Sequence record: ON075799
DNA: 64,000 nucleotides
From: Escherichia phage vB_EcoM_TH18
Direction: 5' to 3' (one strand)
Each line of letters starts with the position of its first letter. The stretch's first letter is position 1. Both the position numbers and the translations under genes were made by a program. The notes under the pieces are model-generated. The model worked only from the letters and a program-made list of their open reading frames with translations, was not told the DNA's origin and did no database searches. Of the stretch, positions 18 to 44,623 are shown piece by piece.

Positions 18-94
18 TGGTGTGACGGACAGGATTCGAACCTGTGACCACCTAGTCTTCAGCAAGGCACTCTACCAACTGAGTTACCGTCACA
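18..94 (-). tRNA. tRNA-Phe (anticodon GAA)
   Basis: Hand-folded cloverleaf on minus strand: 7-bp acceptor, D-stem actc/gagt, anticodon loop CTGAAGA, T-loop GGTTCGAATCC, CCA encoded. Confidence 0.75.
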
Positions 95-98
95 TAAT

Positions 99-175
99 TG
101 GTGGGCGATGAGGGACTCGAACCCCCAAAATTCAGGTTCTAAGCCTGACATGTATACCAATTCCATCAATCGCCC
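99..175 (-). tRNA. tRNA, anticodon UAG (Leu-like decoding) but short variable loop; atypical
   Basis: Minus strand: acceptor gggcgat/atcgccc, anticodon stem tcagg/cctga with loop CTTAGAA, T-arm with TTCGAGT loop, CCA encoded; type-I length (77 nt) despite Leu-type anticodon. Confidence 0.55.
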
Positions 176-189
176 ATCTATATTAACAG

Positions 190-381
190 TTATGGTTTTC
201 CACGATACACAGAAATAGTTTTCCCATTAGCATTGATAACATAAGCGGTCTGATCCTCAGACAAAAACACTTTTTGATCAATGCCGGAAATAGCTATAGA
301 CTTTTGATGAGCACAATACCCAACAATTTTCCCACAAAAAATTTGTTCATCATTTGGAGAGACGACTTTAACTGTTAACAT
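190..381 (-). CDS. hypothetical small protein (63 aa; ORF 190-462 trimmed to internal ATG)
   Basis: Internal ATG at 381 preceded by AGAGGA; the longer ORF would overlap tRNA-Pro. Confidence 0.4.
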   Translation of the reverse strand: MLTVKVVSPNDEQIFCGKIVGYCAHQKSIAISGIDQKVFLSEDQTAYVINANGKTISVYRGKP

Positions 382-423
382 GGTATCCTCTGTACATTTC
401 TGCTTTGATATGTTTATGTTTGT

Positions 424-501
424 TGGTCTGTCCGGTTGGATTTGAACCAACGACCTGGTCATCCCAAGTGACCCGCGCTACCCAAGCTGCGCTACGGACA
501 G
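424..501 (-). tRNA. tRNA-Pro (anticodon UGG)
   Basis: Minus strand: acceptor ctgtccg/cggacag, D-stem gcgc/gcgc, anticodon stem ggtca/tgacc loop CTTGGGA, T-loop TTCAAAT, CCA encoded. Confidence 0.75.
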
Positions 502-585
502 AGAAATGTAGATTTTAATTGTCCCAGAATCTACTAACTGGTATCGCTGGCTAGGTGATATCTGTGACTTGATTAAGTCAAGAAT

Positions 586-677
586 TGGCGGTTCCTGAAG
601 GATTCGAACCTTCGGTGGGGAGATTCATTCCCAACGGCTTAACAGGCCGTCACCATCGACCACTCGGTCAAAGAACC
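586..677 (-). tRNA. tRNA, type II-like (long variable arm), anticodon loop CTGTTAA (GUU?); identity uncertain
   Basis: Minus strand: acceptor ggttctt/aggaacc, anticodon stem acggc/gccgt, extra stem-loop ggga-atgaatc-tccc, T-arm gaagg-TTCGAAT-ccttc, CCA encoded; 92 nt. Confidence 0.5.
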
Positions 678-686
678 TGAATATTT

Positions 687-763
687 TGGTGGATCTGGTT
701 GGGGTCGAACCAACAATCTCTCGATTAAAAGTCGAGTGACTTAAACCATTTGGCTACAAATCC
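687..763 (-). tRNA. tRNA-Lys (anticodon UUU)
   Basis: Minus strand: acceptor ggatttg/cagatcc, anticodon stem ctcga/tcgag loop CTTTTAA, T-arm gttgg-TTCGACC-ccaac, CCA encoded. Confidence 0.7.
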
Positions 764-780
764 GTTAAATTATCTTTAAA

Positions 781-810
781 ATAGCTAATTACTCGCACAT
801 AATTAGCTAT
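781..810. repeat. perfect 10-bp-stem hairpin (atagctaatt / aattagctat) in inter-tRNA spacer
   Basis: Exact inverted repeat with 10-nt loop read directly from sequence. Confidence 0.6.
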
Positions 811-996
811 ACGCAACAACTCTCCAAGGAGAGCACACTAATGATCGATTACGATTATATGACTAAATTTAGACCATCATAAGTGTTTGGCTTACGCCAG
901 TAAAGAGCGGACTGCTCTGGGGTATCGGTAAGATGGTTGCAGCCATCTACCGAAAAATCACACCAAGCAACTAAACAAGCTACATTAAAGATAACT

Positions 997-1085
997 TGGA
1001 GGAGGCTGACAGAATCGAACTGTCACCATATCTCTACAGCGGGACTGGGTTCAAACCAGCTTGTGCACCATGCACCCCAGCCTCC
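997..1085 (-). tRNA. tRNA-Ser (anticodon UGA)
   Basis: Minus strand: acceptor ggaggct/agcctcc, anticodon loop TTTGAAC, long variable arm, T-arm gacag-TTCGATT-ctgtc, CCA encoded; 89 nt. Confidence 0.7.
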
Positions 1086-1156
1086 AAAGATAGCCTCTGC
1101 CGAGGATATACACCCAACAAAGGAGGCGCTCAGGTCAGAAGAAATCTGAGCCTTAA

Positions 1157-1250
1157 TGGAGGAAGATGCCAGACTTGAACTGGCACACCCATTTCTGGGT
1201 TACTATCTCCTTAGCAGGGAGATCCCTTACCAAATTAGGGTTAATCTTCC
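1157..1250 (-). tRNA. tRNA-Ser (anticodon GCU)
   Basis: Minus strand: acceptor ggaagat/atcttcc, anticodon stem tctcc/ggaga loop CTGCTAA, long variable arm, T-arm gccag-TTCAAGT-ctggc, CCA encoded. Confidence 0.7.
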
Positions 1251-1271
1251 AATACCTTAGTAATTAAAAAC

Positions 1272-1361
1272 TGGTGGAGAAGGAGAGAATCGAACTCTCA
1301 AGCCGTTTTACCAGTCAGCACATTTCCAATGTGCTTTCGTCGCCAATCGATTTGCTTCTCC
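1272..1361 (-). tRNA. tRNA-Ser (anticodon GGA)
   Basis: Minus strand: acceptor ggagaag/cttctcc, anticodon stem gcaca/tgtgc loop TTGGAAA, long variable arm, T-arm gagag-TTCGATT-ctctc, CCA encoded. Confidence 0.65.
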
Positions 1362-1370
1362 GTTTTAACT

Positions 1371-1446
1371 TGGCAGGGGATGGTTGATTCGAACAACCGA
1401 TCACGGGGTCAAAGCCCGTTGCATTAGGCCACTATGCTAATCCCCT
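1371..1446 (-). tRNA. tRNA-Gln (anticodon UUG)
   Basis: Minus strand: acceptor aggggat/atcccct, D-stem gcat/atgc, anticodon stem acggg/cccgt loop CTTTGAC, T-loop TTCGAAT, CCA encoded. Confidence 0.7.
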
Positions 1447-1452
1447 TTTGCA

Positions 1453-1527
1453 CGAGAGTGAGGAATAGAACCTCTTAGTCACTGGTTTTGGAGGCCAGCC
1501 TTCACCCAGTGAAGTTACGCTACTCTC
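1453..1527 (-). tRNA. tRNA-Trp (anticodon CCA)
   Basis: Minus strand: anticodon loop CTCCAAA, T-arm with TTCTATT loop, acceptor gagagt/actctc; CCA not encoded. Confidence 0.6.
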
Positions 1528-1535
1528 ATTAAAAA

Positions 1536-2093
1536 CTATTTTCGAAAAGGACTTATGAAAAATGCCAACATCACTCTCTCTCTTGAAAAAGCTCTGTCTT
1601 CAGGAACCACACTCTTCAGTTTCCAACCGACATAAATTCGCCAGTAAAATTGTTTTCCAAACAATCTAAAAGACGGGACAAACGCGAATACACCCCACGC
1701 ATTGTCATTCCACATCAACAAATAGCCTTGTTGGTTATCCTCCACATCAGAGCTTACATGGAGGTTTCCTTTCCACTTTGTCACAGATGTGATTTCACGT
1801 CCAAGTACGTGATAGGAGAAATTGTAGGCTTTATTTCTCCACAACCAAGCAACTCGTTGTAGGTAAACACCAAAACTTCCTATTTTACGGACTTCTTCCC
1901 ATCTCTCTATGTGTCCTCTATCACCGTCTATAGGATTATCATATGTCTCCATCCACCTGAAAATATAAGGCAGATGCCCTGTCTTCTCATTATAGAACGG
2001 AACAACAAAAGGAGCCAGAATAACACAGAGAACCGACATAACTGGGTCAAGAGGTGCTAACAGGATCCACGATAAATATTTTAAGTATCTCAT
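1536..2093 (-). CDS. hypothetical protein (185 aa, aromatic-rich, hydrophobic N-terminus)
   Basis: Long ORF between tRNA sub-clusters; no recognisable motif. Confidence 0.5.
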   Translation of the reverse strand: MRYLKYLSWILLAPLDPVMSVLCVILAPFVVPFYNEKTGHLPYIFRWMETYDNPIDGDRGHIERWEEVRKIGSFGVYLQRVAWLWRNKAYNFSYHVLGREITSVTKWKGNLHVSSDVEDNQQGYLLMWNDNAWGVFAFVPSFRLFGKQFYWRIYVGWKLKSVVPEDRAFSRERVMLAFFISPFRK

Positions 2094-2320
2094 GCAGGAT
2101 CAAGCCTAGATATAATGTACTGGTTTAAATCTGAATATGGGAAGATACTTTCAAAGATAACCTGTTTAAATCTGAAGCCGCACAAACCGAAAAGTACCTT
2201 CTGACACTCACCAAAAGAGCAATCTTTACCAACTTTTATCACAACCGTATCGGCAATCTGCACACTTTCTATCTCTTTAGATTCATGATGCCGTACTATG
2301 ATTACTTTAGAAACCATCAT
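2090..2320 (-). CDS. hypothetical protein (76 aa)
   Basis: ORF whose stop overlaps the start of the downstream gene by 4 bp (translational coupling pattern). Confidence 0.4.
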   Translation of the reverse strand: MMVSKVIIVRHHESKEIESVQIADTVVIKVGKDCSFGECQKVLFGLCGFRFKQVIFESIFPYSDLNQYIISRLDPA

Positions 2321-2445
2321 ACTCGTCCATATTAAAGCCTTCTACTAAAGATAGTAGATGTCTAGGGTTGGACCGCAAACGCAACCCCATGGAATTTGTT
2401 ACGGTCTTCAGTTGACCCAAGCGGATTTCATTGACATCTTTTAAC

Positions 2446-2520
2446 TGGAGCATCCAGAGGGTATCGAACCCTCGACTTCAGCTTGGAAGGCTGTAGTTTT
2501 CCCAATTAAACTATGGATGC
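2446..2520 (-). tRNA. tRNA-Gly (anticodon UCC)
   Basis: Minus strand: acceptor gcatcca/tggatgc, D-stem gttt/aaac, anticodon loop CTTCCAA, T-arm gaggg-TTCGATA-ccctc, CCA encoded. Confidence 0.7.
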
Positions 2521-2525
2521 ATATT

Positions 2526-2601
2526 TGGTGGGAGTGGTAGGCTCTGCCCCTACGTCCTCTCGATTATCGGTCGAGCGATCTACTAACTGATCTACACTCC
2601 C
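2526..2601 (-). tRNA. tRNA-Ile-like (anticodon GAU), atypical T-loop
   Basis: Minus strand: acceptor gggagtg/cactccc, D-stem gatc/gatc, anticodon stem ctcga/tcgag loop CCGATAA, T-stem gtagg/cctac but loop GGCAGAG lacks TTC; CCA encoded. Confidence 0.5.
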
Positions 2602-2665
2602 AAACTGTACTGGCCCAACAACCACGATTGGAGGGTATCGTCACACATCAAAGCCAGTACAGTTT
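2602..2665. repeat. 13-bp-stem hairpin (aaactgtactggc / gccagtacagttt, 38-nt loop) filling the spacer between two tRNAs
   Basis: Exact inverted repeat read from sequence; no T-loop, so not a tRNA. Confidence 0.55.
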
Positions 2666-2669
2666 TAGT

Positions 2670-2759
2670 TGGTGTGCCGTGATAGAGTCGAACTACCCGA
2701 GTCCCTTTCGAGACAGGAGATTTACAGTCTCCCCCGCTACCCCTACGGTCTAACGACAC
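2670..2759 (-). tRNA. tRNA-Tyr (anticodon GUA), type II
   Basis: Minus strand: acceptor gtgtcgt/acggcac (one G-U), anticodon stem ggaga/tctcc loop CTGTAAA, long variable region, T-arm ggtag-TTCGACT-ctatc, CCA encoded; D-arm irregular. Confidence 0.6.
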
Positions 2760-2760
2760 A

Positions 2761-3108
2761 TTAACCTTGTTTGAATTGAACAATATCCGTCGAGAACGGT
2801 TTAGCTGCCTTAATAGGTGCTTTTTCTGAGTTATCTTTTTCGAGTAACTCTTCGTTTTCCTCATCAAAGTAATCAGAAAGCATCTGCTCACCTTTCTCAA
2901 TAACATAACGAGCTATATTTTCTCTGATATTGTCTTTTGTATTCACATTCTTCATCAAATCCCTAAGAACCTGATGAGCTTCAGGAATCATTGCAATCAG
3001 ATTCGTTTTTAAATCTAGGATATTTTTCTCTAACTGAATTGCATTAGATTCCTCTTTCAGAGGACGACCTTTTCCTCTTCTACGTTTTGTAAGCTGCTTA
3101 GTAGCCAT
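2761..3108 (-). CDS. hypothetical protein (115 aa from internal ATG; acidic C-terminal half)
   Basis: ORF 2761-3333 trimmed to the Met at 3108 because the upstream part overlaps tRNA-Cys. Confidence 0.45.
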   Translation of the reverse strand: MATKQLTKRRRGKGRPLKEESNAIQLEKNILDLKTNLIAMIPEAHQVLRDLMKNVNTKDNIRENIARYVIEKGEQMLSDYFDEENEELLEKDNSEKAPIKAAKPFSTDIVQFKQG

Positions 3109-3193
3109 TTTAAAACCCCACTTAATGATATTATCAAATAAAAACATATCTGTCAAGTGGTATTTTAACATATTTACCAAGAAATTGAAAGTT

Positions 3194-3270
3194 TGGAGCA
3201 CGGTGTCGGACTTGAACCGACATATATCTGTTTTGCAGACAGATCCGTAACCAAATTCCAGCAACCGTGC
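3194..3270 (-). tRNA. tRNA-Cys (anticodon GCA)
   Basis: Minus strand: acceptor gcacggt/accgtgc, anticodon stem tctgt/acaga loop CTGCAAA, T-arm with TTCAAGT loop, CCA encoded. Confidence 0.7.
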
Positions 3271-3356
3271 AATAAGTACCCCAGGTAGAGAACCTATAGA
3301 GTGGGTCTTACGAGCCGCGCTGACGATTCTCAAGTTGGGGTTAATCTGGTCGAGGA

Positions 3357-3433
3357 GACAGGATTCGAACCTGTGACCTACGGCTTAGAAGGCCGCTGCT
3401 CTATCCAACTGAGCTACACCCCGAAAATAAGAA
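3357..3433 (-). tRNA. tRNA-Arg (anticodon UCU)
   Basis: Minus strand: canonical D-arm tagctcagttggatagagc, anticodon stem gcggc/gccgt loop CTTCTAA, T-arm acagg-TTCGAAT-cctgt, CCA encoded. Confidence 0.7.
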
Positions 3434-3623
3434 TGCTTTATAGTGTATGGTTACTCAACCTCACTCCAACTTCCACAGTTGGTGCTCTACGAGCATGACT
3501 ACGTTTGAAATCAACGTTGCGCACCGATAGCTTTCTCACGCATTGTATGCCTCATTCCCAACAAATGCTGATCAGACATTTATATCGAATAATATAAGCT
3601 AATACACTATAAAACAAACTTGT

Positions 3624-3720
3624 GGCTGGGTGATGGAATCGAACCACCTATGTATTCAACGGCTTCCCCGTCTATTTTCAGGATTATAAATCCTCGCCCT
3701 TGCCAAAGGGCTTACCCAGC
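3624..3720 (-). tRNA. tRNA-like gene, unusually long (about 97 nt); anticodon loop TTTATAA (UAU?) with about 30-nt insertion before the T-arm
   Basis: Minus strand: acceptor gctgggt/acccagc, D-stem gccc/gggc, 4-bp anticodon stem agga/tcct, extra hairpin acgg-ggaag-ccgt, T-arm ggtgg-TTCGATT-ccatc; CCA not encoded. Confidence 0.4.
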
Positions 3721-3722
3721 AT

Positions 3723-3797
3723 TGGTGCTCGCAGCAGGTTTCGAACCTGCAACCCCCTGCTTACAAGGCAGGTGCTCTACCGTTGAGCTATACGAGC
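3723..3797 (-). tRNA. tRNA-Thr (anticodon UGU)
   Basis: Minus strand: acceptor gctcgta/tgcgagc, D-stem gctc/gagc, anticodon stem cctgc/gcagg loop CTTGTAA, T-arm gcagg-TTCGAAA-cctgc, CCA encoded. Confidence 0.75.
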
Positions 3798-4162
3798 AAT
3801 AAGACATTGCTTCCGATTAACAGCCTTGAGGCTTTACAGACCATATCTTGTGAGCCATAACCTGTGCCAAGGATTTCAGATGATAAACGAAATTTTATCT
3901 TTCAAGAGTCAACTTTCAAGTTTCATCTTTTACATTTAACCATTGACCTTTATTGTATGAACTTTTACTTAGTGGAAACAACAAGGCATCTTCGTGTGCC
4001 TCGCTGCATCTATGTCCTGTATTATCCTCATACATATACGATACATGGTGGGGGATATTTAACCTCCAACCCCCAGGAGGCAAGATGATGTAAACTTCGT
4101 TAATCAAAAGCAATGTTTTAAATTTCAAAACAAAGGAACGATAATGATATTATCAGAGCCTT

Positions 4163-4810
4163 TTAGAGAGAGTGCTCAATCTCAATTTCTGTCTTAGCGT
4201 TTGACTCAGACAACGCAAAATCAACGTTAGACAAGAAATCTTCAATCTCTTCTTCAAGAGAACGAATCTTAGAAGCCAGTTCAAGAGGATCCACAACCGA
4301 TGGTGTGTTCATCATTCGAATAGGAGCTTCCACAGTCTTAATCTGCTCTGCATCTGGCGCTTTATCACGTTGGATATATGGCGCTCTTGCATTTTCAAGT
4401 TTATCTTCCAGAGATTTTTCTTCTTTTGCCAGAAGAAGCTGTGCAGAAGCACGCTGTGCACAAAGTTTGTTTAACAACTCTTGTTTAAAGCAAATCGTCC
4501 GTTTGCGTTCGATTGCCTCAGCAACTGTCATAGACACATTACCAATTTTGACAATTGTCTCAGCATTAGACTTAACAATTTTTGCTTTCAGTTCATCACG
4601 CACTGCCAAGAGGTCTTGCAGACTTTGATAGTCGTTGATCGCAGATTTCTTAAAATCATCAACAGAGCCGATATAACCCGGAATCTTACAATTATTCTCA
4701 GTTCCTTTTGCAATCTTAATACAATCAAGATTGTAGATACGCTTATTGATCTTATCTTCAATTTTAGAGATAGAAGCAAGTGCACGAGTTACGGAAATCT
4801 TAGTAGACAT
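4163..4810 (-). CDS. hypothetical protein (215 aa, predicted coiled-coil, K/E-rich)
   Basis: Long ORF; composition only. Confidence 0.55.
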   Translation of the reverse strand: MSTKISVTRALASISKIEDKINKRIYNLDCIKIAKGTENNCKIPGYIGSVDDFKKSAINDYQSLQDLLAVRDELKAKIVKSNAETIVKIGNVSMTVAEAIERKRTICFKQELLNKLCAQRASAQLLLAKEEKSLEDKLENARAPYIQRDKAPDAEQIKTVEAPIRMMNTPSVVDPLELASKIRSLEEEIEDFLSNVDFALSESNAKTEIEIEHSL

Positions 4811-4883
4811 GCGATCTCTCCTATGTAAATCAGCTTTGATAAAGTAACTATCCAGAAAAACAAAAACTATGTCAAGAAAAATT

Positions 4884-5075
4884 TTAATCTTTTACAGCAT
4901 CTTTTATAGAATCACAAAGATCTTGAACAACATCAGATGTCGGTGACAAAATCATCTCGTCGGCTGCTGCTATAGCATCTGATGCTAAATCAACAAACGG
5001 AGTTGTTACCGCAGAAGTCACTTCAACAGCCGTTATTGTTACTTCGCTTGCAATCTTAAGCAAAGATCCTATCAT
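4884..5075 (-). CDS. hypothetical protein (63 aa)
   Basis: Small ORF downstream of the tRNA-Met gene. Confidence 0.3.
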   Translation of the reverse strand: MIGSLLKIASEVTITAVEVTSAVTTPFVDLASDAIAAADEMILSPTSDVVQDLCDSIKDAVKD

Positions 5076-5151
5076 AATCTCAACCCTCCTGAATATCCGT
5101 GATTCCCTTTATTTAACGACGCTGGCTCACGGTGGCACTCTCGTCAATAAA

Positions 5152-5475
5152 CTATTTTTTAGTTTTCTTACCGTTTTCTACAGAAATGCTTGTTTTCTGT
5201 TTCGCTTCTCGTTCGCGCTTTGTTTTCCCAGTGCGAATACGATATGAAGCAGAAATAACTTCACCACCAATGACACGAGACACAGATTCGTAATACATTT
5301 CAGTATTACCGTCTTCATCTTTGCGTTTTTTCAGAACTGCTACAGTTTGCGTTTTACCACCAAGGCGCACATCGTGCGGTGCAGAATGTGTCTGCGTGGA
5401 TTTTGATCCAAACTGAAAAGGTTGCTTTATCGCCTCGATAGCTGACACCTTTTTAGCAGACTGTTTCTTAGCCAT
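5152..5475 (-). CDS. hypothetical basic protein (107 aa from internal ATG, Lys-rich)
   Basis: Internal ATG at 5475 preceded by GGAGG; Lys-rich termini. Confidence 0.45.
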   Translation of the reverse strand: MAKKQSAKKVSAIEAIKQPFQFGSKSTQTHSAPHDVRLGGKTQTVAVLKKRKDEDGNTEMYYESVSRVIGGEVISASYRIRTGKTKREREAKQKTSISVENGKKTKK

Positions 5476-5527
5476 TAAGTTTTCTCCTCCGAAAACAATA
5501 AACATAGTTTATTTCGTGTGCCACATT

Positions 5528-5604
5528 TGGTGGCCCCTGCTGGACTTGAACCAGCGACCAAGCGATTATGAGTCACCTGCTCTATCCAACTGAGCTAAGG
5601 GGCC
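5528..5604 (-). tRNA. tRNA-Met (anticodon CAU; elongator-type or Ile2-type)
   Basis: Minus strand: acceptor ggcccct/aggggcc (G1-C72 paired), canonical D-arm, anticodon loop CTCATAA, T-arm gctgg-TTCAAGT-ccagc, CCA encoded. Confidence 0.7.
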
Positions 5605-28095: not shown

Positions 28096-28296
28096 CTACA
28101 TCCTCCACGTTAGTTTCTGAGCGATCTCTAACAAGGCATCTATCTTGTGCATATACTCTTTCCTTTTCTCACTACCAGGAGGGAATTGGTCTCTCGTTTG
28201 CATCAAGGTTTTTATCTCTTCAGACAGATGATTAAGGATTTCAACGCGCTCACGTTTTCGACCTAGTTGCTCAATTTCTTTATCACGACAATTCAT
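28096..28296 (-). CDS. hypothetical protein (66 aa)
   Basis: ORF, divergent from the plus-strand gene at 28376. Confidence 0.4.
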   Translation of the reverse strand: MNCRDKEIEQLGRKRERVEILNHLSEEIKTLMQTRDQFPPGSEKRKEYMHKIDALLEIAQKLTWRM

Positions 28297-28375
28297 AATA
28301 CACCCTACAGTGTTGTCAAACTATGAGAGTATGATAATATATGGTGCAACAACTTACAATAGCAGGAGACGATTT

Positions 28376-28657
28376 ATGACTGTAAAAATCCCTAAAGGTG
28401 GCAGACCAGATAGAAATGCATGTGACATGCGTGTAAGGGTAGGGAGAATGTGTCTAATTTATGGAATAACTTATCCACCAATGGTGCGACTTAATGGTAA
28501 AATATGTAAGGTCATCGACATACCAAAAGATAACACAACACGCTTCTTGTGCAAGGTCAAAGATGAAGAGAAGGTTTTTAACATCCCACACAAAAACCTA
28601 ACAGTTTTGGATCTTAATGACAACATTGTTATCTCTAAATACCGTTGTATAAGCTAA
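28376..28657 (+). CDS. hypothetical protein (93 aa); lone plus-strand gene inside the minus-strand block
   Basis: Own promoter TTGTCA-16-TAATAT (about 28312-28345), AGGAG ribosome-binding site, and a bidirectional terminator downstream. Confidence 0.45.
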   Translation: MTVKIPKGGRPDRNACDMRVRVGRMCLIYGITYPPMVRLNGKICKVIDIPKDNTTRFLCKVKDEEKVFNIPHKNLTVLDLNDNIVISKYRCIS

Positions 28658-28660
28658 CAT

Positions 28661-28684
28661 AAAAGCCCCGCATGGGGCTTTTAT
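28661..28684. terminator. bidirectional rho-independent terminator (AAAA-gcccc-gcat-ggggc-TTTT)
   Basis: Hairpin flanked by an A-run and a T-run, between convergent genes. Confidence 0.7.
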
Positions 28685-28686
28685 GT

Positions 28687-29490
28687 TTATTCAAAATCAT
28701 CAACACCACTATCGGTAAGGTTTTCTCTGCTTGAAGGTTTTGTCGAAAGAACTTGCTCAAGCAGAGAGGAAAATTTCTGCAAATTACTTACAGAAGAAGT
28801 ACCTGCTGCCATGGCAAGCATATCCACTTCTTTTTCGGTAGGTTGAGCCCAGTCTAGAAACATCTCTTTCATGTACAACGTTGATGACCCTATTGGTGTG
28901 GCGAGGTCAACCCTATCAGCATAGATCCAGAAAAGAACCTCTTTCTCTATACATACACACAAAGCAGCACCCAACGAGTATCCTGTAACGATGGATGGAT
29001 ATCTTGCAACGAGGATCTCGACATTCAGGTCATCCCAGTGAAATACAACACCCAAATACTTCATACCCACAATGTCTTCCACTGCGGGTTTTAGCTCCTC
29101 ATGGGAAGAAAGGGAGTCATAGTTAATATTCTTTATGAATTTAAGAACGTCTTGGCGGTTGTAGGCACAATCGTTATCACCTTGCTTCCAATAACCCCAA
29201 AATGAAGTCGATAAATTCAACCAAAAACTTGCAGTTGTCCCTAATGTCTCAGCCAGTTTTTCAGCCACATCTTCTGATACTTCTTCCATGTTATAAAGGA
29301 TGGTTCTCAACTTATTTACCGGTATACCAGATTTGTCGGCAAGATCATCCACACACCAACCTAATGGATCTAGATATTCGTGGATAATAACCTCACCTGG
29401 TGATACTGGTGCTCTTTCTTTTAACATTCTTGCTCCTCTATCTATATCAGAAAACCCTGCAAAGCAGCAGGGTTCTGTCACTCTTAACAC
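28687..29490 (-). CDS. HigA/XRE-type helix-turn-helix domain protein with about 170-aa C-terminal domain of unknown function
   Basis: N-terminal segment SPGEVIIHEYLDPLGW...IPVNKLRTILYN...AEKLAETLGTTASFWLNLST matches the remembered HigA-antitoxin helix-turn-helix pattern. Confidence 0.55.
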   Translation of the reverse strand: MLRVTEPCCFAGFSDIDRGARMLKERAPVSPGEVIIHEYLDPLGWCVDDLADKSGIPVNKLRTILYNMEEVSEDVAEKLAETLGTTASFWLNLSTSFWGYWKQGDNDCAYNRQDVLKFIKNINYDSLSSHEELKPAVEDIVGMKYLGVVFHWDDLNVEILVARYPSIVTGYSLGAALCVCIEKEVLFWIYADRVDLATPIGSSTLYMKEMFLDWAQPTEKEVDMLAMAAGTSSVSNLQKFSSLLEQVLSTKPSSRENLTDSGVDDFE

Positions 29491-29687
29491 TTAGGTGAGC
29501 ATTTATCGCACGAACATGAAATTCCGTGGAAACACAATCCTGTCCCGTCTTTCTTGACCCCTGTTCCACCACACTGGGGACAACTATCGTGTAAACATTT
29601 TGTTTTTGTTGTCTCCTCTTTATCTTTATTAAAGAGGTTTTTCATAATCATTTTCTGTTGTTCAATCGTAAACATTTGCGTCCCCAA
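29484..29687 (-). CDS. Cys-rich small protein (67 aa, zinc-finger-like)
   Basis: C-x2-C and repeated Cys pairs (CPQCGG ... CFHGISCSCDKCSPKC). Confidence 0.45.
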   Translation of the reverse strand: MGTQMFTIEQQKMIMKNLFNKDKEETTKTKCLHDSCPQCGGTGVKKDGTGLCFHGISCSCDKCSPKC

Positions 29688-29968
29688 AATCTTTCAAGTG
29701 CTTCTGCCTCTTCCATGTTCGGGAAGATACCGTAGAAACAGAACTTACCTTTAGAGAAGTACGGAATAAATACCCGCCCATCACTGGTTTCAAACATCTT
29801 ATCAAAATTTGGTAGCTTCAGGTGTGATTTTATAGCCTCTTTAATACTTTTATCCCATTGATGCTGCCATTTACAGGCTTTTAGGTATTCACTAATATTG
29901 TAAGAACCTACTCTCCTCAAAATACTGGTGAGAAACTTTTTGTTTTTACGAATAATCTTCTTTTTCAC
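29648..29968 (-). CDS. hypothetical protein (106 aa); paralog of 29946-30251
   Basis: Shares N-terminal MKKK(I/L)xRxNKxFL(T/S) with the adjacent gene. Confidence 0.5.
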   Translation of the reverse strand: MKKKIIRKNKKFLTSILRRVGSYNISEYLKACKWQHQWDKSIKEAIKSHLKLPNFDKMFETSDGRVFIPYFSKGKFCFYGIFPNMEEAEALERFWGRKCLRLNNRK

Positions 29969-30251
29969 TCAAAAGCCTCATTTCTTCAAACTGCTCTGGT
30001 GTCAATAAACTTGTTCCTACACGACTGCCATTACCACACATAAGAGGTACGGCAATCATATGGCTATCCTTTTCTGCATTACCTAAATCAAGGTACTCCC
30101 CATAACGTTTGATAAGTCGAATGCTCATTTTTGAATTAGCTAAAGCCCTTGTGTTATAGAGATAATCCTCAAGGTACAAATGTAGATCGTTTGCCACCTT
30201 TAAAGATTTTGATAAGAATAATTTATTACGCCGTGCCAGTTTTTTCTTCAT
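29946..30251 (-). CDS. hypothetical protein (101 aa); paralog of 29648-29968
   Basis: Tandem duplicate by N-terminal similarity. Confidence 0.5.
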   Translation of the reverse strand: MKKKLARRNKLFLSKSLKVANDLHLYLEDYLYNTRALANSKMSIRLIKRYGEYLDLGNAEKDSHMIAVPLMCGNGSRVGTSLLTPEQFEEMRLLSEKEDYS

Positions 30252-39565: not shown

Positions 39566-40024
39566 TTAGCCCTCTCCAATTGCCTCACTAAAAGCTGTTT
39601 GAAAACTGGAAGCAACTCCAGCAAGTTTAATCGTAATTCTTTCTTGATAAATTGCATACGCTAGCTCATCTGGCGAGAGAGCTTCTTTCAAATGACCAGC
39701 CATTACACCCATTACTTTCTCAAGTGTATCTTCAGATAACATCTTCTTGAGCCGTTTCTGGGCTGTGTTTAACTCTTTCTCAAGAGTTGGATTAGAGTCT
39801 TTCTTAGCTTGCGCTTTCATCATCTTCATGGAATCAATCATTAACTGAGTGTCCTCAGTCACCTGATTAATCAATCTTGGGAAGATCAATTCTGCGAAAA
39901 TATAGGCCAACTCTTGATGAGTTTTAAGGAGTAAACTATCAATCGCTAGTTTTGGTGCGTACAAGTTTTCTTCATTAATGATATCTGCCATGATATTATC
40001 CTCTACGGGTTGCTCGTGCTGCAT
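39566..40024 (-). CDS. hypothetical protein (152 aa)
   Basis: ORF only. Confidence 0.5.
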   Translation of the reverse strand: MQHEQPVEDNIMADIINEENLYAPKLAIDSLLLKTHQELAYIFAELIFPRLINQVTEDTQLMIDSMKMMKAQAKKDSNPTLEKELNTAQKRLKKMLSEDTLEKVMGVMAGHLKEALSPDELAYAIYQERITIKLAGVASSFQTAFSEAIGEG

Positions 40025-40142
40025 TATCAGCCATTACCTGAAACAATTCCTCTTCGGTAATTTTTCTTTTCTTGCGTTTTCCACTGCGCAGCGCCAGCGC
40101 AAGCTCTTTTTCATATGCTTTTCGTAGAGTTTTCTTACTCAT

Positions 40143-40616
40143 TTAAATCTCCTCTTTCCACAAACCATCTTTTTTAACCCACATTTTTTGGTTATCAGAA
40201 CCCCTGAACCTTTTGGTTGTAGGCTTAGACATATCATACTTACCATCTATAACAATGTCAACAAGATTTTTAATACTTTCAGGTATTTCTTCAAATAAAT
40301 ATCCTGTCCACAGCCAAATGTCTTTATCATCTCCGTAAACTGACCGTACCTTTAAAATAATCTTTATAACACCATCAATATTTTGTGGATCAAGTGGTTC
40401 CCCACCTAAAATTGAGAGTCCTTTTATTTGCTTACGTGCCAAATCCTTTATAATTCTATCTAAGTGTTCGTCTGTAAACATTTCACCATAGCTATATGAC
40501 CAAGCTCTTTGGTTAAAGCATCCGCGACAACAATGACCACATCCGCTAACCCAGAGGGAGCATCGCACTCCCTCCCCGTTGATCATATCTGTTGGTTCAT
40601 AACCGCAGAAATTCAT
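40143..40616 (-). CDS. nrdG: anaerobic ribonucleotide reductase activating protein (radical SAM)
   Basis: CxxxCxxC-type cluster (CGHCCRGC) near the N-terminus; 157 aa; adjacent to nrdD. Confidence 0.8.
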   Translation of the reverse strand: MNFCGYEPTDMINGEGVRCSLWVSGCGHCCRGCFNQRAWSYSYGEMFTDEHLDRIIKDLARKQIKGLSILGGEPLDPQNIDGVIKIILKVRSVYGDDKDIWLWTGYLFEEIPESIKNLVDIVIDGKYDMSKPTTKRFRGSDNQKMWVKKDGLWKEEI

Positions 40617-40993
40617 GTATGTTTCACTCTCTCTACAACTTCTTGCATCTTACCCTTGTTATAAGGACGGCTGTTTGGAGCAGACAAATATCCAGACACA
40701 CGTCTAATCACACTTATTGTTTCTTCATCATGATTGCCACAAGAAGGGCACTCGAATCCCTTAGCTGTGGCCTTGAACTCACCAGAGAAACCACACTCGT
40801 AACATCTATCTACAGGCTGATTTATACCAAAATAAGGGATGTGTTCATATCCATAATCCACTAAGGCTTCCAACGCTTGCATGTTGTTTCTTAGATTAGG
40901 AACTTCCACATAACCTATGTTACCACCATTGCTTATCTCAGCAAACCCACATTCATAATCCCATTTGGAGAATGGATCAGACGTTTTCCACAC
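40613..40993 (-). CDS. nrdD: anaerobic ribonucleoside-triphosphate reductase NrdD, C-terminal segment (exon 3; frame open upstream to about 41116)
   Basis: Zn ribbon CYECGF...CPSCG and glycyl-radical motif RRVSGYL; upstream in-frame YLTNSFH. Confidence 0.75.
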   Translation of the reverse strand: MWKTSDPFSKWDYECGFAEISNGGNIGYVEVPNLRNNMQALEALVDYGYEHIPYFGINQPVDRCYECGFSGEFKATAKGFECPSCGNHDEETISVIRRVSGYLSAPNSRPYNKGKMQEVVERVKHT

Positions 40994-41092
40994 TGGTTGA
41001 TGAAACGAGTTTGTCAGATAATCTCTTTCGATTAATCCTGGGTATGCTTCTTTAAGTTTTGTGGCAAATTTATAACACAGAGATTCTGCCGA

Positions 41093-41379
41093 TGTACCGC
41101 TGCTTTCGCAGTATTTTCACGGACTAGACTATATCACGATCTTGTGACCACTCACAAGACCCTCCACATTTCGCCATTCAAGGCTACTCTACTCGCTTCT
41201 TCACATCAGGTGAAGCTGATGCTATGCTTTCGATAGTCGTTAGAGACAATCTCTTGCCTACGGGGTTAGCTCTGCCCCAACAGGGTTTAGCCTTTCTTAC
41301 CAGCTTATTGTTTATTCAGCTATGCCCGTTTAGTGGAGTTATTCGACAACCATCACTGGTTGAAGGCCCAATTGTGTTT
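41093..41379 (-). other. intervening sequence B in nrdD (about 290 nt, no ORF); candidate group I intron
   Basis: Conserved NrdD motifs FSLYGTP and SAESLC...YLTNSFH are separated by non-coding sequence with stops in frame; boundaries approximate. Confidence 0.45.
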
Positions 41380-41871
41380 AGGCGTGCCATATAGGCTAAA
41401 TGCTAAACCACTTCGCTCTTTAAAATCAGCACAAATATCCTTCATATATTTCAAGATATTCATTGCCATCTCTTTACGAACTGGTTCGCCATACAAAATT
41501 TCAACTGCTTCATAAAGACCCACATAGCCAATACTGATTGATGCGTAGCCATTAAAGAAGAGTTTACTAATCTTTTCATCAGGTCCGAGCCGTGCAATAG
41601 CCCCCTCCATAAACATTGTGGGATTCTGGGATGCTTTTACATCCATCAATCTACCGACTCTAACCATGTGCGCTTTATACGCCATTTCCATGTGCTTTTC
41701 AAGCAATTCGGTAAACAGAGTTTTCTTAGATTTTGCTTCTGCTGCAATCATAGGTAAGTTTAGAGAGACAACACCAAGATTGAATCTACCATCATATTTC
41801 TCACCATGTTCTGTTGCATAATAAGATAAGAAACTTCTACACATTATGTTCGAAGTGGTTCGCAAGGCCAC
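41353..41871 (-). CDS. nrdD: NrdD, middle segment (exon 2)
   Basis: Contains MCRSFL and NLGVVSLNLP motifs as remembered from class III RNR. Confidence 0.7.
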   Translation of the reverse strand: MALRTTSNIMCRSFLSYYATEHGEKYDGRFNLGVVSLNLPMIAAEAKSKKTLFTELLEKHMEMAYKAHMVRVGRLMDVKASQNPTMFMEGAIARLGPDEKISKLFFNGYASISIGYVGLYEAVEILYGEPVRKEMAMNILKYMKDICADFKERSGLAFSLYGTPKHNWAFNQ

Positions 41872-42120
41872 TCCCGCACCACTACGTGCTGCTGCATGTC
41901 ACCATGCAGACCAGACCATATCTTCATGCTTAAAGCATGTCTGCCGTTTGGGGTGTCATCAGCTTACACTCTACATCCCTACATTCATCAGGATTGGTCG
42001 TTAGGCATTTACGGTTGATACCGATTTAGCACGGGATTCCCTCCATAGAGGATTCCCCCGTTTAGGCAGATTTTACATGAGCAGTTATAGTTTACCCATG
42101 CTTGTAACACGCCCGTCTGA
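41845..42120 (-). other. intervening sequence A in nrdD (about 275 nt, no ORF); candidate group I intron
   Basis: Lies between the motifs GDPNYD...KKVTGS (exon 1) and MCRSFL (exon 2); stops in all frames; boundaries approximate. Confidence 0.45.
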
Positions 42121-43260
42121 AGAACCTGTTACCTTTTTATTCAACGGTACAGATATGAAATCTGGATAAATCCTTTCAACACAACACTCCATGGCTAATT
42201 GCTTTAAGTCGTAGTTGGGATCGCCAGGTTTCATGTTTACACCATCTTCCAAGAAGAAGATAACTTTTGGAAAAACAGGTGTGACTTTGTCTTTGCCAAG
42301 TCCGTTTTTGTGAACAAGAAGATAATTCTTTGTAATCATTCTCCCAAAATAGGAAGTATCAAGCCCAAGACTCAAGGTGATAAATGGGCATTGACCGTTA
42401 GCACTCATCAAGGTATTTACCTGATAAAGCAATGTCTGCATAGCATCGTAAACATCTTTTTCCGTCATCTGCATAGCTACACCTTCTGGGTCTGGCAGCC
42501 ATTGCTCCTGACAAAATTTTAGATTTTTATCGTAACTTGCCTTGGCATATTGTTTTAATCCTTCATCAATATGGGTGTATGACTGACCACCATATTGAAC
42601 CGAAGAAACTGATTGGGATATCTGGCTAAGAATGGTACAGGCAACACCTATCGATTTCGGCTTTTCTATTTTTGCATTGCCAATTTTAAAACCGTTCTCC
42701 AACATATCCCTATAATTTACAAGACTGCAATTAGTTAATGGGCTTATCAAATAATCTAAGTCATGTATATGACCATAACCATTTGTATGCCATTCAGCCA
42801 ATTCTTTTGGTAGAATTTGAGTTAGTGAGACGTGCTTGCTAAGGATACCCGCGAGAAGATCACGATGGCTACTAACCACCCCACTTGGTTTATTAGCGTT
42901 TTCTTTAGTAAATTCATCGGCAGTTTGTTCTAAGAATCCCGTAATATCTGCAAACAGTTTTCCTTTACCTTCCCTAACGTTATCACGCGTTTTACGATAT
43001 TCAATATACGCCCGTGCAGCGTTCTTGAGGTCAAGATCCATTAGTGAATCTTCCACAATGCGGTGAATATCACAAACAGCCACTTTCTCTTGCGGTGGTT
43101 CTGATTTTTCCAGAGTTTCATAGGCTTGCTCGCCAACTGCACACGCCAGAGGATATGATTTCTCACCATAACCAGCAGCAATTAAAGCGGCTTCTGCCGC
43201 TTTAATAACTTTCACACCATCATAATCTTCTTCACGCCCATCACGTTTAACAACTTTCAT
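42085..43260 (-). CDS. nrdD: NrdD, N-terminal segment (exon 1, ATP-cone plus catalytic core start)
   Basis: N-terminal MKVVKRDGREEDYD ATP-cone-like start; GDPNYD motif near the end. Confidence 0.75.
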   Translation of the reverse strand: MKVVKRDGREEDYDGVKVIKAAEAALIAAGYGEKSYPLACAVGEQAYETLEKSEPPQEKVAVCDIHRIVEDSLMDLDLKNAARAYIEYRKTRDNVREGKGKLFADITGFLEQTADEFTKENANKPSGVVSSHRDLLAGILSKHVSLTQILPKELAEWHTNGYGHIHDLDYLISPLTNCSLVNYRDMLENGFKIGNAKIEKPKSIGVACTILSQISQSVSSVQYGGQSYTHIDEGLKQYAKASYDKNLKFCQEQWLPDPEGVAMQMTEKDVYDAMQTLLYQVNTLMSANGQCPFITLSLGLDTSYFGRMITKNYLLVHKNGLGKDKVTPVFPKVIFFLEDGVNMKPGDPNYDLKQLAMECCVERIYPDFISVPLNKKVTGSSDGRVTSMGKL

Positions 43261-43263
43261 TGT

Positions 43264-43566
43264 TTATTCCCCCAGTTCAGTATTAATAAACGCAATAAAT
43301 TCATCTGCCGTGCCAACATATACAGTATCGACACCGCACTCATAAAAAATCCGTGGGACTGTTTTTGGGATAACAGGAGAGCATTTTAAGACCAATTCCT
43401 CTTTGGTGAAATCTTCTCCTAATTTCTTATAGATAAAGTTAAGTCCTTTTTGTTTTGCAAACTCTTTTGCTCTTACACAATGAGGGCAATTATCTTTCCC
43501 ATAAATTACAAACGTGCATTCTTTAAAGTTCATCTTAAAAATCCCAGATTTCTTCTTCTGCATCAT
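43264..43566 (-). CDS. glutaredoxin/NrdH-like redoxin (CPHC active site)
   Basis: CPHC dithiol motif near the N-terminus; 100 aa; between nrdB and nrdD. Confidence 0.7.
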   Translation of the reverse strand: MMQKKKSGIFKMNFKECTFVIYGKDNCPHCVRAKEFAKQKGLNFIYKKLGEDFTKEELVLKCSPVIPKTVPRIFYECGVDTVYVGTADEFIAFINTELGE

Positions 43567-44623
43567 TCACCGTTGTGTTAACACGATAGTCTGTGTTGGA
43601 CATTTCTTGGTTAGCCGTCTGCTGCAATGCAGGATTCATCCATACTTGCATTAACGGTAAAGGGTCTTTGGAAGGAGGGTTGAAGTCCCTATCAAATCCA
43701 AAATGGTCATAGATAGGAGCACAATTATAATCAACCCACTCTTTCAGCAATGATTCGTTAAGGCCAATGATTGCCCTACCATCACTGAAGATATAGTGAC
43801 TCCAACTATACTCTTTAAATCTAACTTCGTCAAGAATTTCTTTCAATTCATGTTTGATGGCATTAAAGCTGTTCAACCATACAGGATCTTCTAACAGAAT
43901 TTCAATAATTGCAAAGTCGTTTTTTGTATGGAGAATCTCATCAAGCATTATTTTTTGCACAAGCTGTGCAACTTGAACAAAAATCCCCTGTTCCGCTAGA
44001 GCAAATGTGCACGCAAAACTGGATATGAACTCTATGGCCTCTAGGCCAAGCAGAGCAAACATAGCTCTCAGAATACCTCTACGGATATCTTCTTTATCTA
44101 TAGAAGCAGGATCCAGTCTGTATTTAGCACCAAGAACTTCTAGTTCACGCATATATTTGACAATGACACCAGATCTGTTTAAAACTTCTTGGTTGTTTTG
44201 TACTTCTTCAATAATTTCTCGTGCATTTGGCAAACACTGTCTGACAATTTCTGAGTATGTCAAAGCATGAAGCACTTCGATTTCTGCCTGTTTCATCATC
44301 AAAGCGTATAATTCACTGTTTGTGATGAATGGGGCAAATAAACAGATAATTGATTGCGCTGCAACACTATCAGCTTCCCATTGCCACATCAAAGTTTGCA
44401 CCATAACATCATAGGTTGATTTACTGCATGTAGCAAAATCTGAAATTGATTGTACTAAATCAACTTCGTCTTCTGACCAGTCTTGCTCTTTTTGTTTTTT
44501 ATACAAATCGAAAAGTTTTGGGTATTTTTTATTAATGGAGTCATACATCCCCATCTGCTGACCAAGAAACAGAGGGTAATCCCCAGTTTTATGTGCTGTG
44601 TTTTCTGTATTGAATAATGCCAT
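43535..44623 (-). CDS. nrdB: ribonucleotide reductase small subunit (class Ia beta)
   Basis: 362 aa, immediately downstream of nrdA, with Glu/His-containing helices typical of a di-iron site. Confidence 0.8.
   Translation of the reverse strand: MALFNTENTAHKTGDYPLFLGQQMGMYDSINKKYPKLFDLYKKQKEQDWSEDEVDLVQSISDFATCSKSTYDVMVQTLMWQWEADSVAAQSIICLFAPFITNSELYALMMKQAEIEVLHALTYSEIVRQCLPNAREIIEEVQNNQEVLNRSGVIVKYMRELEVLGAKYRLDPASIDKEDIRRGILRAMFALLGLEAIEFISSFACTFALAEQGIFVQVAQLVQKIMLDEILHTKNDFAIIEILLEDPVWLNSFNAIKHELKEILDEVRFKEYSWSHYIFSDGRAIIGLNESLLKEWVDYNCAPIYDHFGFDRDFNPPSKDPLPLMQVWMNPALQQTANQEMSNTDYRVNTTVNDAEEEIWDF

Follow-up and report, generated by a model that had tools for sequence, protein, structure and literature searches.

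Genes annotated as "plasmid antitoxin with HTH domain", that is, orphan HigA-like genes encoding a helix-turn-helix (HTH), occur in many lytic phages, and to our knowledge none of them has been characterised. In Seunavirus PVP-SE1, gene gp173 stands alone on the strand opposite to its neighbours, converges with gp172 across annotated rho-independent terminators and is preceded by annotated divergent promoters, beyond which gp174 follows. Here we describe a locus in which both elements meet, located in a 64,000-nucleotide stretch of Escherichia phage vB_EcoM_TH18 (sequence record ON075799), hereafter termed the window, to which all coordinates refer. Between positions 28,096 and 29,490, a minus-strand gene encodes a protein in which a HigA-type HTH is fused to a domain resembling PVP-SE1 gp172. 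The HTH annotation is already known, as RefSeq labels the gene "plasmid antitoxin with HTH domain", and so is the frame of promoters, terminator and lone gene, as annotated in PVP-SE1; no description of the domain fusion was found in the annotated records or the literature searched. On balance, we favour reading the locus as a conserved transcription-unit boundary of the non-Vequintavirus Vequintavirinae beside a variable accessory-gene slot, with the fusion as a non-essential, early host-interaction protein.

Over 1.8 kb around the locus, the sequences of Escherichia phages 18-1-2, 19-1-2 and 24-2-1 agree with the window at 100% identity and that of Escherichia phage Av-05 at 94%; all of these phages belong to the genus Avunavirus of the subfamily Vequintavirinae. 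The window starts with a tRNA cluster, followed by a plus-strand gene block; from ~24.7 kb to its end, it carries early genes and genes of nucleotide metabolism and replication in a block on the minus strand.

An all-against-all BLASTP comparison of the open reading frames (ORFs) at the loci of four genera (Avuna-, Seuna-, Mydo- and Henunavirus) revealed a common set of genes, namely the homologues of a nucleotidyltransferase, a 72-residue membrane protein, a zinc-finger protein and the 93-, 66- and 106-residue proteins. Between the zinc-finger gene and the terminator, everything differs by genus: the slot holds gp170-172 in Seunavirus, a 159-residue membrane protein and an HNH protein in Mydovirus, gp160/gp159 in Henunavirus, and the single HigA::gp172-like fusion gene in Avunavirus, where gp170 and gp171 are absent. 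The locus has no HigA domain in Seuna-, Mydo- or Henunavirus. In all four genera, the terminator and the divergent promoters flank the gp173-like gene (that of the 93-residue protein in the window), which runs on the strand opposite to that of its neighbours. GAP31 has a layout identical to that of PVP-SE1, and the Erwinia Henunavirus pEp_SNUABM_01 a similar one; for the Klebsiella Mydovirus K54lambda1.1.1, ORF analysis gave the order zinc-finger protein, 159-residue membrane protein, HNH protein, convergent 98-residue homologue and 67-residue homologue. In Mydovirus and Henunavirus it is the gene arrangement alone that recurs, whereas Seunavirus PVP-SE1 also has annotated promoters and terminators. 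Because the frame of plus-strand gene, terminator, promoter pair and 66-residue gene is conserved in four genera, three of which lack the HigA domain, it is, as judged from these sequences, ancestral and independent of HigA rather than inserted. The same synteny overturns the initial annotation in its central claim, according to which the locus looked like a regulatory or toxin-antitoxin-like cassette, complete in itself, that had been inserted into the early operon.

The fusion gene had been described as encoding a 267-residue protein at 28687-29490. The minus-strand ORF ending at 28687 is sound, but its GTG start at 29490 is over-extended. The true start is the ATG at 29427, since a ribosome-binding site (RBS), GAGGAG, lies 6 nt upstream of it, a coding sequence (CDS) of 246 residues with this ATG is annotated in 18-1-2 and Av-05, and the close homologues all begin there. 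The frame is uninterrupted in Av-05, 18-1-2, three marmot phages and the metagenomic proteins P0001-P0003, and the same holds for two independent clusters of metagenomic sequences, with 61 and 55 members. Compared with Av-05 and a metagenomic relative (L008), the gene has a ratio of nonsynonymous to synonymous substitution rates (dN/dS) of 0.10-0.14, indicating purifying selection; by part, the ratio is 0.03-0.08 for the N-terminal domain and 0.14-0.21 for the C-terminal domain, which makes the HTH its most strongly constrained region. The fusion is strongly acidic, with an isoelectric point (pI) of 4.45 and a net charge of -19. It matches phrog_1381 ("plasmid antitoxin with HTH domain") at 1e-85, a family placed in the PHROG category 'moron, auxiliary metabolic gene and host takeover'. 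PHROG divides the fusion in two, with the N-terminal part in phrog_1381 and the C-terminal part in phrog_19128, a family of unknown function.

The fusion is limited to Avunavirus in every collection searched, and a search of IMG/VR for remoter or differently fused relatives returned only Av-05, PVP-SE1 and 4MG. Moreover, the locus has no DNA match among 5,426 complete E. coli genomes, and we rejected a recent capture from the host on this ground. The label 'putative pirin', carried by the original Av-05 record (GenBank KM190144), finds no Pfam or fold support, as the protein has neither a cupin beta-barrel nor a Pirin match in Pfam.

The N-terminal domain belongs to the HigA family. Residues 5-74 match the NCBIfam model TIGR02607 (HigA family addiction module antitoxin) with 58.1 bits, above the curated cut-off of 47.7, and the best sequence matches among solved structures are E. 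coli YbaQ (2eby, 7e-11), Pseudomonas putida GraA (6f8s, 6e-8) and Coxiella VapI (3trb, 7e-8). The domain is 38-40% identical to plasmid HigA antitoxins and carries the N-terminal P-x-x-PGE motif and the FWLNL motif of the family. It had been called a textbook HigA/XRE HTH, of which the first half is borne out; since the generic Pfam HTH_3 model scores below its own cut-off (17.5 vs 23), "HigA-like" is a better description than "textbook XRE". The net charge of the HTH domain (residues 1-84) is -7, compared to -3 to +1 in its relatives. In tblastn searches, many unrelated phages proved to have orphan HigA-like genes that match the first 76-88 residues.

The remainder of the fusion was described earlier as a domain of roughly 170 residues with no recognisable motif. 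This description is correct insofar as the domain matches no ordinary enzyme family and no solved fold according to Pfam, NCBIfam, a profile search of the PDB and fold comparison, but the domain is not peculiar to this protein. Residues ~82-230 are homologous (27-33% identity, tblastn) to standalone Seunavirus proteins of ~164 residues, including PVP-SE1 gp172, GAP31_104 and their counterparts in SSE121 and 4MG. The C-terminal domain matches phrog_19128 at 9e-10, with 19 of the 19 aligned members matching, and the gp172-like proteins at 4e-12 by BLASTP. In addition, the gp172-like domain and PVP-SE1 gp172 share the same genomic position, being encoded last before the terminator and convergent with the gp173 homologue. 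An AlphaFold2 model computed from a 19-sequence alignment (pLDDT, the predicted local distance difference test, 79; pTM, the predicted template modelling score, 0.73) contains a six-stranded antiparallel meander along with three short and two long helices. Foldseek against viral models returned only the Seunavirus (SSE121) homologue, with a template modelling score of 0.68. We found no Pfam or NCBIfam family for the domain (~160 residues), nothing meaningful with PADLOC, nothing at E up to 10 in a profile search of PDB sequences, and only its own cluster in a HMMER search of 1.8 billion representative proteins, apart from one marginal hit to a 1730-residue repeat protein (E 2e-4) that we judged spurious. 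As modelled, the C-terminal domain thus has an orphan fold that only a few genera of the Vequintavirinae share. The acidic tail that follows it is specific to Avunavirus, and Seunavirus gp172 ends otherwise. With its near-terminal aromatic residue, this tail may resemble the tips of SSB-type and T7 gp2.5-type proteins.

The fusion gene and the 93-residue gene meet at a perfect 14-bp inverted repeat with a 4-nt loop (arms 28656-28669 and 28674-28687), of sequence AACATAAAAGCCCC-GCAT-GGGGCTTTTATGTT, in which a GC core is flanked by AAAA and TTTT. Its folding energy is -21.6 kcal/mol (z -5.5) for the plus strand and -22.1 kcal/mol (z -5.3) for the minus strand, and none of 200 shuffled sequences reached as good a value. 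Both strands show the GC-rich stem with A-tract and T-tract of a bidirectional terminator, and the perfect bidirectional terminator reported earlier at 28661-28684 is the core of this strongly non-random hairpin. It would thus be expected to stop transcription from either side. A simple pattern scan missed the hairpin because the T-run was counted into the stem. In Av-05 (L001, 5683-6121, corresponding to window 28600-28690), the convergent genes are set apart by ~340 bp of unrelated non-coding sequence, which includes a terminator-like hairpin of its own; other phages offer no match to this insert, and neither an Rfam family nor a convincing ORF was found in it. In the metagenomic relative L008, whose 93-residue gene is intact, the gap between the convergent genes is about as long (~360 nt). 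Scanned with Rfam, neither the locus nor the Av-05 insert gave a hit above the gathering score.

Two overlapping sigma-70-like promoters are predicted back to back on the other side of the 93-residue gene. The claim that this gene has its own promoter gains nothing from the match to the consensus, which is at the level of chance, but it does gain comparative support: the TTGTCAA at the -35 element is invariant across four phages, and PVP-SE1 has promoters annotated at the equivalent place, as well as terminators at the equivalent site. Promoter activity at 28313-28359 is therefore put forward as a prediction. A search for operators found no inverted repeat in the divergent promoter region. Upstream of the fusion gene (minus strand, 29427-30000), the consensus scan gave no promoter-like site, nor does a convincing operator palindrome lie directly upstream of it. 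The hairpin between the zinc-finger and fusion genes is kept in Av-05 with another loop length, and its z is only -2.1; it is possibly a weak terminator, an attenuator or a stabiliser. A motif, (C/T)(A/G)TGATAAAAT(G/A)GA, located ~25-30 nt upstream of an AGGAGGT RBS, is shared by Seuna-, Mydo- and Henunavirus, at sites on the minus strand upstream of gp170-like genes (L004 ~5130-5175, L006 ~3700-3740, L007 ~3685-3720). It looks like an extended -10 element, or like a promoter specific to the phages, and might serve the virion-protein gene of the slot. The motif was not seen in the 66 nt between the zinc-finger and fusion genes of the window, where the virion-protein gene is absent too. The features of the locus are collected in Table 1.

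Table 1. Window coordinates of the features at the locus, with the basis of each assignment
Feature	Position	Strand	Basis or remarks
66-residue helical protein, PVP-SE1 gp174 homologue	28096..28296	-	phrog_19160, 8e-35; dN/dS 0.03-0.06
Sigma-70-like promoter of the 93-residue gene (predicted)	28313..28340	+	TTGTCA, 16 nt, TGaTAATAT (extended -10); 9/12 plus TG
Divergent sigma-70-like promoter, would restart minus-strand transcription (predicted)	28331..28359	-	TTGTAA, 17 nt, TATCAT; 9/12
Lone plus-strand gene, 93 residues, pI 9.6, PVP-SE1 gp173 homologue	28376..28657	+	phrog_13562, 7e-14; tblastn
Bidirectional intrinsic-terminator-like hairpin	28656..28687	.	Fills the whole gap between two convergent stop codons
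Fusion CDS, 246 residues (HigA-type HTH and gp172-like domain)	28687..29427	-	RBS, annotation, homologues, dN/dS
Acidic tail, residues 231-246	28690-28737	-	Ends ...SSRENLTDSGVDDFE; low confidence in the model
gp172-like domain, residues 85-230, orphan alpha/beta fold	28738..29175	-	Homology, model
HigA-family helix-turn-helix, residues 5-76	29200..29415	-	TIGR02607, solved relatives, identity to plasmid HigA
Hairpin between zinc-finger and fusion genes	29452..29475	-	8-9 bp stem AACCCTGC/GCAGGGTT, then UUUUCU
Zinc-finger protein, 63 residues, DnaJ-like motif CPQCGGTG ... CxC..C	29484..29675	-	phrog_17149

Based on these features, we propose that an early minus-strand unit would run from the nucleotidyltransferase gene through the genes of the small membrane protein and the zinc-finger protein to the bidirectional terminator, into which the single small opposite-strand gene would read from the other side. 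The back-to-back promoters would start this 93-residue gene and restart minus-strand transcription at the 66-residue gene. The slot between the zinc-finger gene and the terminator would carry genus-specific cargo, in Avunavirus the HigA head with the gp172-like domain. Given its orphan module, the variable slot, the apparent dispensability and the acidity, the fusion would act as a non-essential, early-expressed accessory host-interaction protein and not as an antitoxin with its own toxin. We infer the timing of its expression as well as its molecular target. The dispensability is suggested by a Logan contig (L015, run ERR2241694), which is collinear with window 30720-28897 and then with 25011-24526. 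At the junction, ~130 nt of unrelated sequence take the place of ~3.9 kb (window 28896-25012); the fusion is cut at about residue 175, and the terminator, the 93- and 66-residue genes and the following small genes are gone. Judging from this contig, the fusion protein appears dispensable.

The cassette originally proposed would combine the HigA-like protein, as antitoxin or regulator, with the 93-residue (or 66-residue) protein as toxin or partner. A HigA-family domain is indeed present, the 93-residue protein is toxin-sized and basic beside an acidic HigA-like protein, and the genes are compactly spaced with signals of their own. Nevertheless, the 93- and 66-residue genes occupy the same place in genera without the HigA domain, so that the presumed partners do not co-occur. 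We also rejected the acid-base complementarity of the fusion and the 93-residue protein as evidence of a pair, since the charges are reversed in PVP-SE1, where gp172 has a pI of 7.8 and gp173 one of 5.1. In canonical HigBA systems, the toxin gene lies upstream of the antitoxin gene in the same orientation, an order exemplified by plasmid pWL297-3, where HigA shares 38% identity with the N-terminal domain of the fusion. At this locus, the HTH and 93-residue genes converge with the terminator between them and the 66-residue gene lies beyond the promoter pair, leaving no co-oriented pair. No HigB/RelE-fold toxin is encoded upstream, where the zinc-finger protein is conserved in genera without HigA; no Pfam toxin family was found among the neighbouring genes; and the 93-residue family, which has no Pfam family, aligned to a RelE/ParE toxin with an hhalign probability of 0.06. 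Furthermore, among 706 stop-to-stop ORF segments of at least 40 residues in the window, the best match to two HigB-type toxins, one of them of provisional sequence, had an E of 0.11, and that ORF has no Pfam support. With convergent and insulated genes, no toxin likeness and a conservation free of HigA, we reject the cassette, which we regard as largely refuted and very unlikely: several defining features of HigA are found at the level of the domain and not of the system. Even less credible is that the fusion would be an artefact, two genes joined by a frameshift or misassembly, or a decaying, non-functional remnant. Such a state might be suggested by the 1-nt indel of Av-05 in the adjoining 93-residue gene, the truncated allele of contig L015 and the inconsistent 'putative pirin' label of the original GenBank record, but the frame is uninterrupted in Av-05, the three marmot phages and both metagenomic clusters, both domains are under purifying selection, and the RBS is strong.

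Among the possible roles of an accessory host-interaction protein, we tentatively rank first an antitoxin-type decoy, in which the HigA module would sequester a toxin of the HigB/GraT/RelE fold that belongs to a toxin-antitoxin defence of the host or of a plasmid. In the HigA family, it is the folded HTH domain itself that touches the toxin. Such toxins would be freed during infection as host gene expression shuts off, and the very acidic gp172-like domain would provide oligomerisation or a second target. The unusual acidity (net -19; HTH -7) is more in keeping with a decoy that binds protein than with a repressor of the usual DNA-binding type. The use of orphan antitoxin homologues by phages in counter-defence has a known example in the DarG-like case (PMC11825919). 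Several observations weigh against our interpretation. The identity of the HTH to known HigA antitoxins is no more than 38-40%, and the host has no close copy of it; its recognition helix retains polar and basic residues (NKLRT) and might bind DNA; the 9/12 promoter matches show no enrichment over shuffled sequence; and the L015 deletion is known from a single contig of one sample, which might be an assembly chimera. Besides, toxin-antitoxin pairs are usually specific, and cross-neutralisation is not a given. Nearly as likely as the decoy, if doubtful in itself, is a DNA-binding transcription regulator whose dimeric HTH would act on phage or host operators, e.g. at the promoters at 28313-28359. 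Its gp172-like domain would serve oligomerisation or as an effector, and the protein, no less doubtfully, would tune the early-to-middle switch or repress its own unit in the manner of AcrIIA1. The HTH has the fold and sequence of a DNA-binding family whose members autorepress their operons, and AcrIIA1 itself has a GraA-like HTH that acts as a repressor, fused to a Cas9-inhibiting domain (PMC9410906). Moreover, the HTH is the part under the strongest constraint, the gene lies ~330 bp from the promoter pair, and regulators commonly arise when a pre-existing standalone protein acquires a DNA-binding head. By contrast, directly upstream of the gene there are only a transcript hairpin and an RBS, with no promoter-like site or convincing operator palindrome; the divergent promoter region has no inverted repeat; the protein is strongly acidic, its HTH domain included; and the promoter/terminator frame exists in three genera without an HTH protein in the slot. 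An extension of the decoy, in which the HigA::gp172-like protein would be a bifunctional counter-defence factor, its head sequestering a RelE-fold toxin from an E. coli toxin-antitoxin or abortive-infection system and its C-terminal domain forming a new inhibitor or host-takeover module, which Seunavirus phages would employ on its own, seems to us distinctly improbable.

The small genes flanking the fusion are real as well. The 93-residue gene, preceded by an AGGAG RBS, has homologues in 68 phage records from Seuna-, Mydo- and Henunavirus (tblastn; 35-40% identity). Among the gp173-like proteins, identity is 36-41%, and the motifs G.PD.N..D and LNG do not vary. Compared with L008, it has accumulated 11.5 synonymous changes, and amino-acid differences are confined to the last five residues. 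The initial annotation took it for the only plus-strand gene of the minus-strand block; in the annotation of the identical record, it is the only substantive plus-strand CDS there, but two edge ORFs of 41 and 44 residues also lie on this strand. The protein has no Pfam or PDB match, and its N-terminal KGGRPDRN was rejected as an AT-hook, the arginines not being conserved. In Av-05, a 1-nt G insertion shifts the frame and shortens the protein to 68 residues; a sequencing error is possible. An apparent paralogue in the tail-fibre cluster of K54lambda1.1.1 proved to be an artefact of a feature table out of register. In this record (L006, OY979426.1, Klebsiella phage vB_Kpl_K54lambda1.1.1), one of the annotated CDSs has 6 stop codons in its translation, and early-region ORFs bear tail-fibre labels.

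The 66-residue gene had been seen as a divergent partner of the plus-strand gene. It is a real gene with homologues at the same position in PVP-SE1, GAP31 and K54lambda, but rather than a partner it is the first gene of the next minus-strand transcription unit. Given their purifying selection, seen in dN/dS and in synonymous versus amino-acid changes, the 93-residue, 66-residue and fusion genes are, to judge by substitution patterns, all real. The zinc-finger protein, with homologues of 39-56% identity in PVP-SE1, GAP31, K54lambda and pEp_SNUABM_01, marks the upstream border of the variable slot. Farther upstream, two overlapping small genes (29648-29968 and 29946-30251, both on the minus strand) have in common a basic N-terminal segment, MKKK..R.NK.FL., with 10 of 18 residues identical. 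Neither has homologues in the other genera compared, and the two may represent a diverged tandem duplication or share an N-terminal signal.

Elsewhere in the window, 15 tRNA genes lie at 18-5604 on the minus strand (Phe, Leu, Pro, Asn, Lys, three Ser, Gln, Gly, Tyr, Cys, Arg, Thr and Met). A group I catalytic intron at 41892-42132 on the minus strand (Rfam RF00028; score 79.8 bits, gathering score 50, E 7e-20) interrupts the gene for the large subunit of the class III (anaerobic) ribonucleotide reductase. The pieces of this gene lie at ~40613-40993, 41353-41871 and 42085-43260, and the identical record annotates them as three separate CDSs. In the second gap (40993-41353), an Rfam scan of 40000-44000 found no RNA family.

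For the most part, our findings correct an over-interpreted cassette. Their main value lies in a tractable test case for the roles of orphan HigA-like genes in lytic phages, as the gp172-like domain occurs with a HigA head in Avunavirus and without one in Seunavirus in an otherwise identical frame, which amounts to a natural experiment; the possible natural deletion variant L015 adds to this comparison. If the HigA head neutralises host toxins, counter-defence by orphan antitoxins would extend from DarG-like enzymes to the large HigA family. If the protein is a regulator instead, it would exemplify how phages build regulators by domain accretion, and if it should prove a bifunctional counter-defence factor, the slot between the zinc-finger gene and the terminator would be an anti-defence island of these phages. 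In addition, the combination of a terminator, a lone opposite-strand gene and divergent promoters could serve as a landmark for accessory-gene slots in Vequintavirinae.

Compared to known systems, the fusion is similar to the HigA family (TIGR02607/COG3093; YbaQ 2EBY, GraA 6F8S, VapI 3TRB and plasmid HigA) in residues 5-76 and their motifs. However, members of this family are single-domain proteins of ~95-120 residues encoded in toxin-antitoxin operons, whereas the phage protein has 246 residues with an extra folded domain of ~160 residues, is much more acidic and occurs in a virulent-type phage. The orphan phage proteins labelled "plasmid antitoxin with HTH domain" (phiR1-37 g309, Aes012, FBKp24 and ZCKP1) have the same HTH, belong to phrog_1381 and likewise have no toxin partner, but they consist of the HTH alone, with matches stopping at about residue 75-90, and the gp172-like C-terminal domain is found only in Avunavirus. 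AcrIIA1-like HTH-effector fusions are also alike in combining an N-terminal antitoxin-like HTH with a C-terminal phage-specific domain among accessory early genes; such self-regulated fusions have their own promoter and operator directly upstream, for which no candidates were found before the fusion gene. The gp172-gp173-gp174 locus of PVP-SE1 has the same frame, including the upstream nucleotidyltransferase, membrane-protein and zinc-finger genes. There, gp172 is a standalone protein of 164 residues encoded after gp170 and gp171, whereas in the window both of these are absent and a HigA-type HTH is fused to the N-terminus. AcrIIA1 (PMC9410906) and the DarG-like proteins (PMC11825919) provide the precedent for phages borrowing antitoxin modules.

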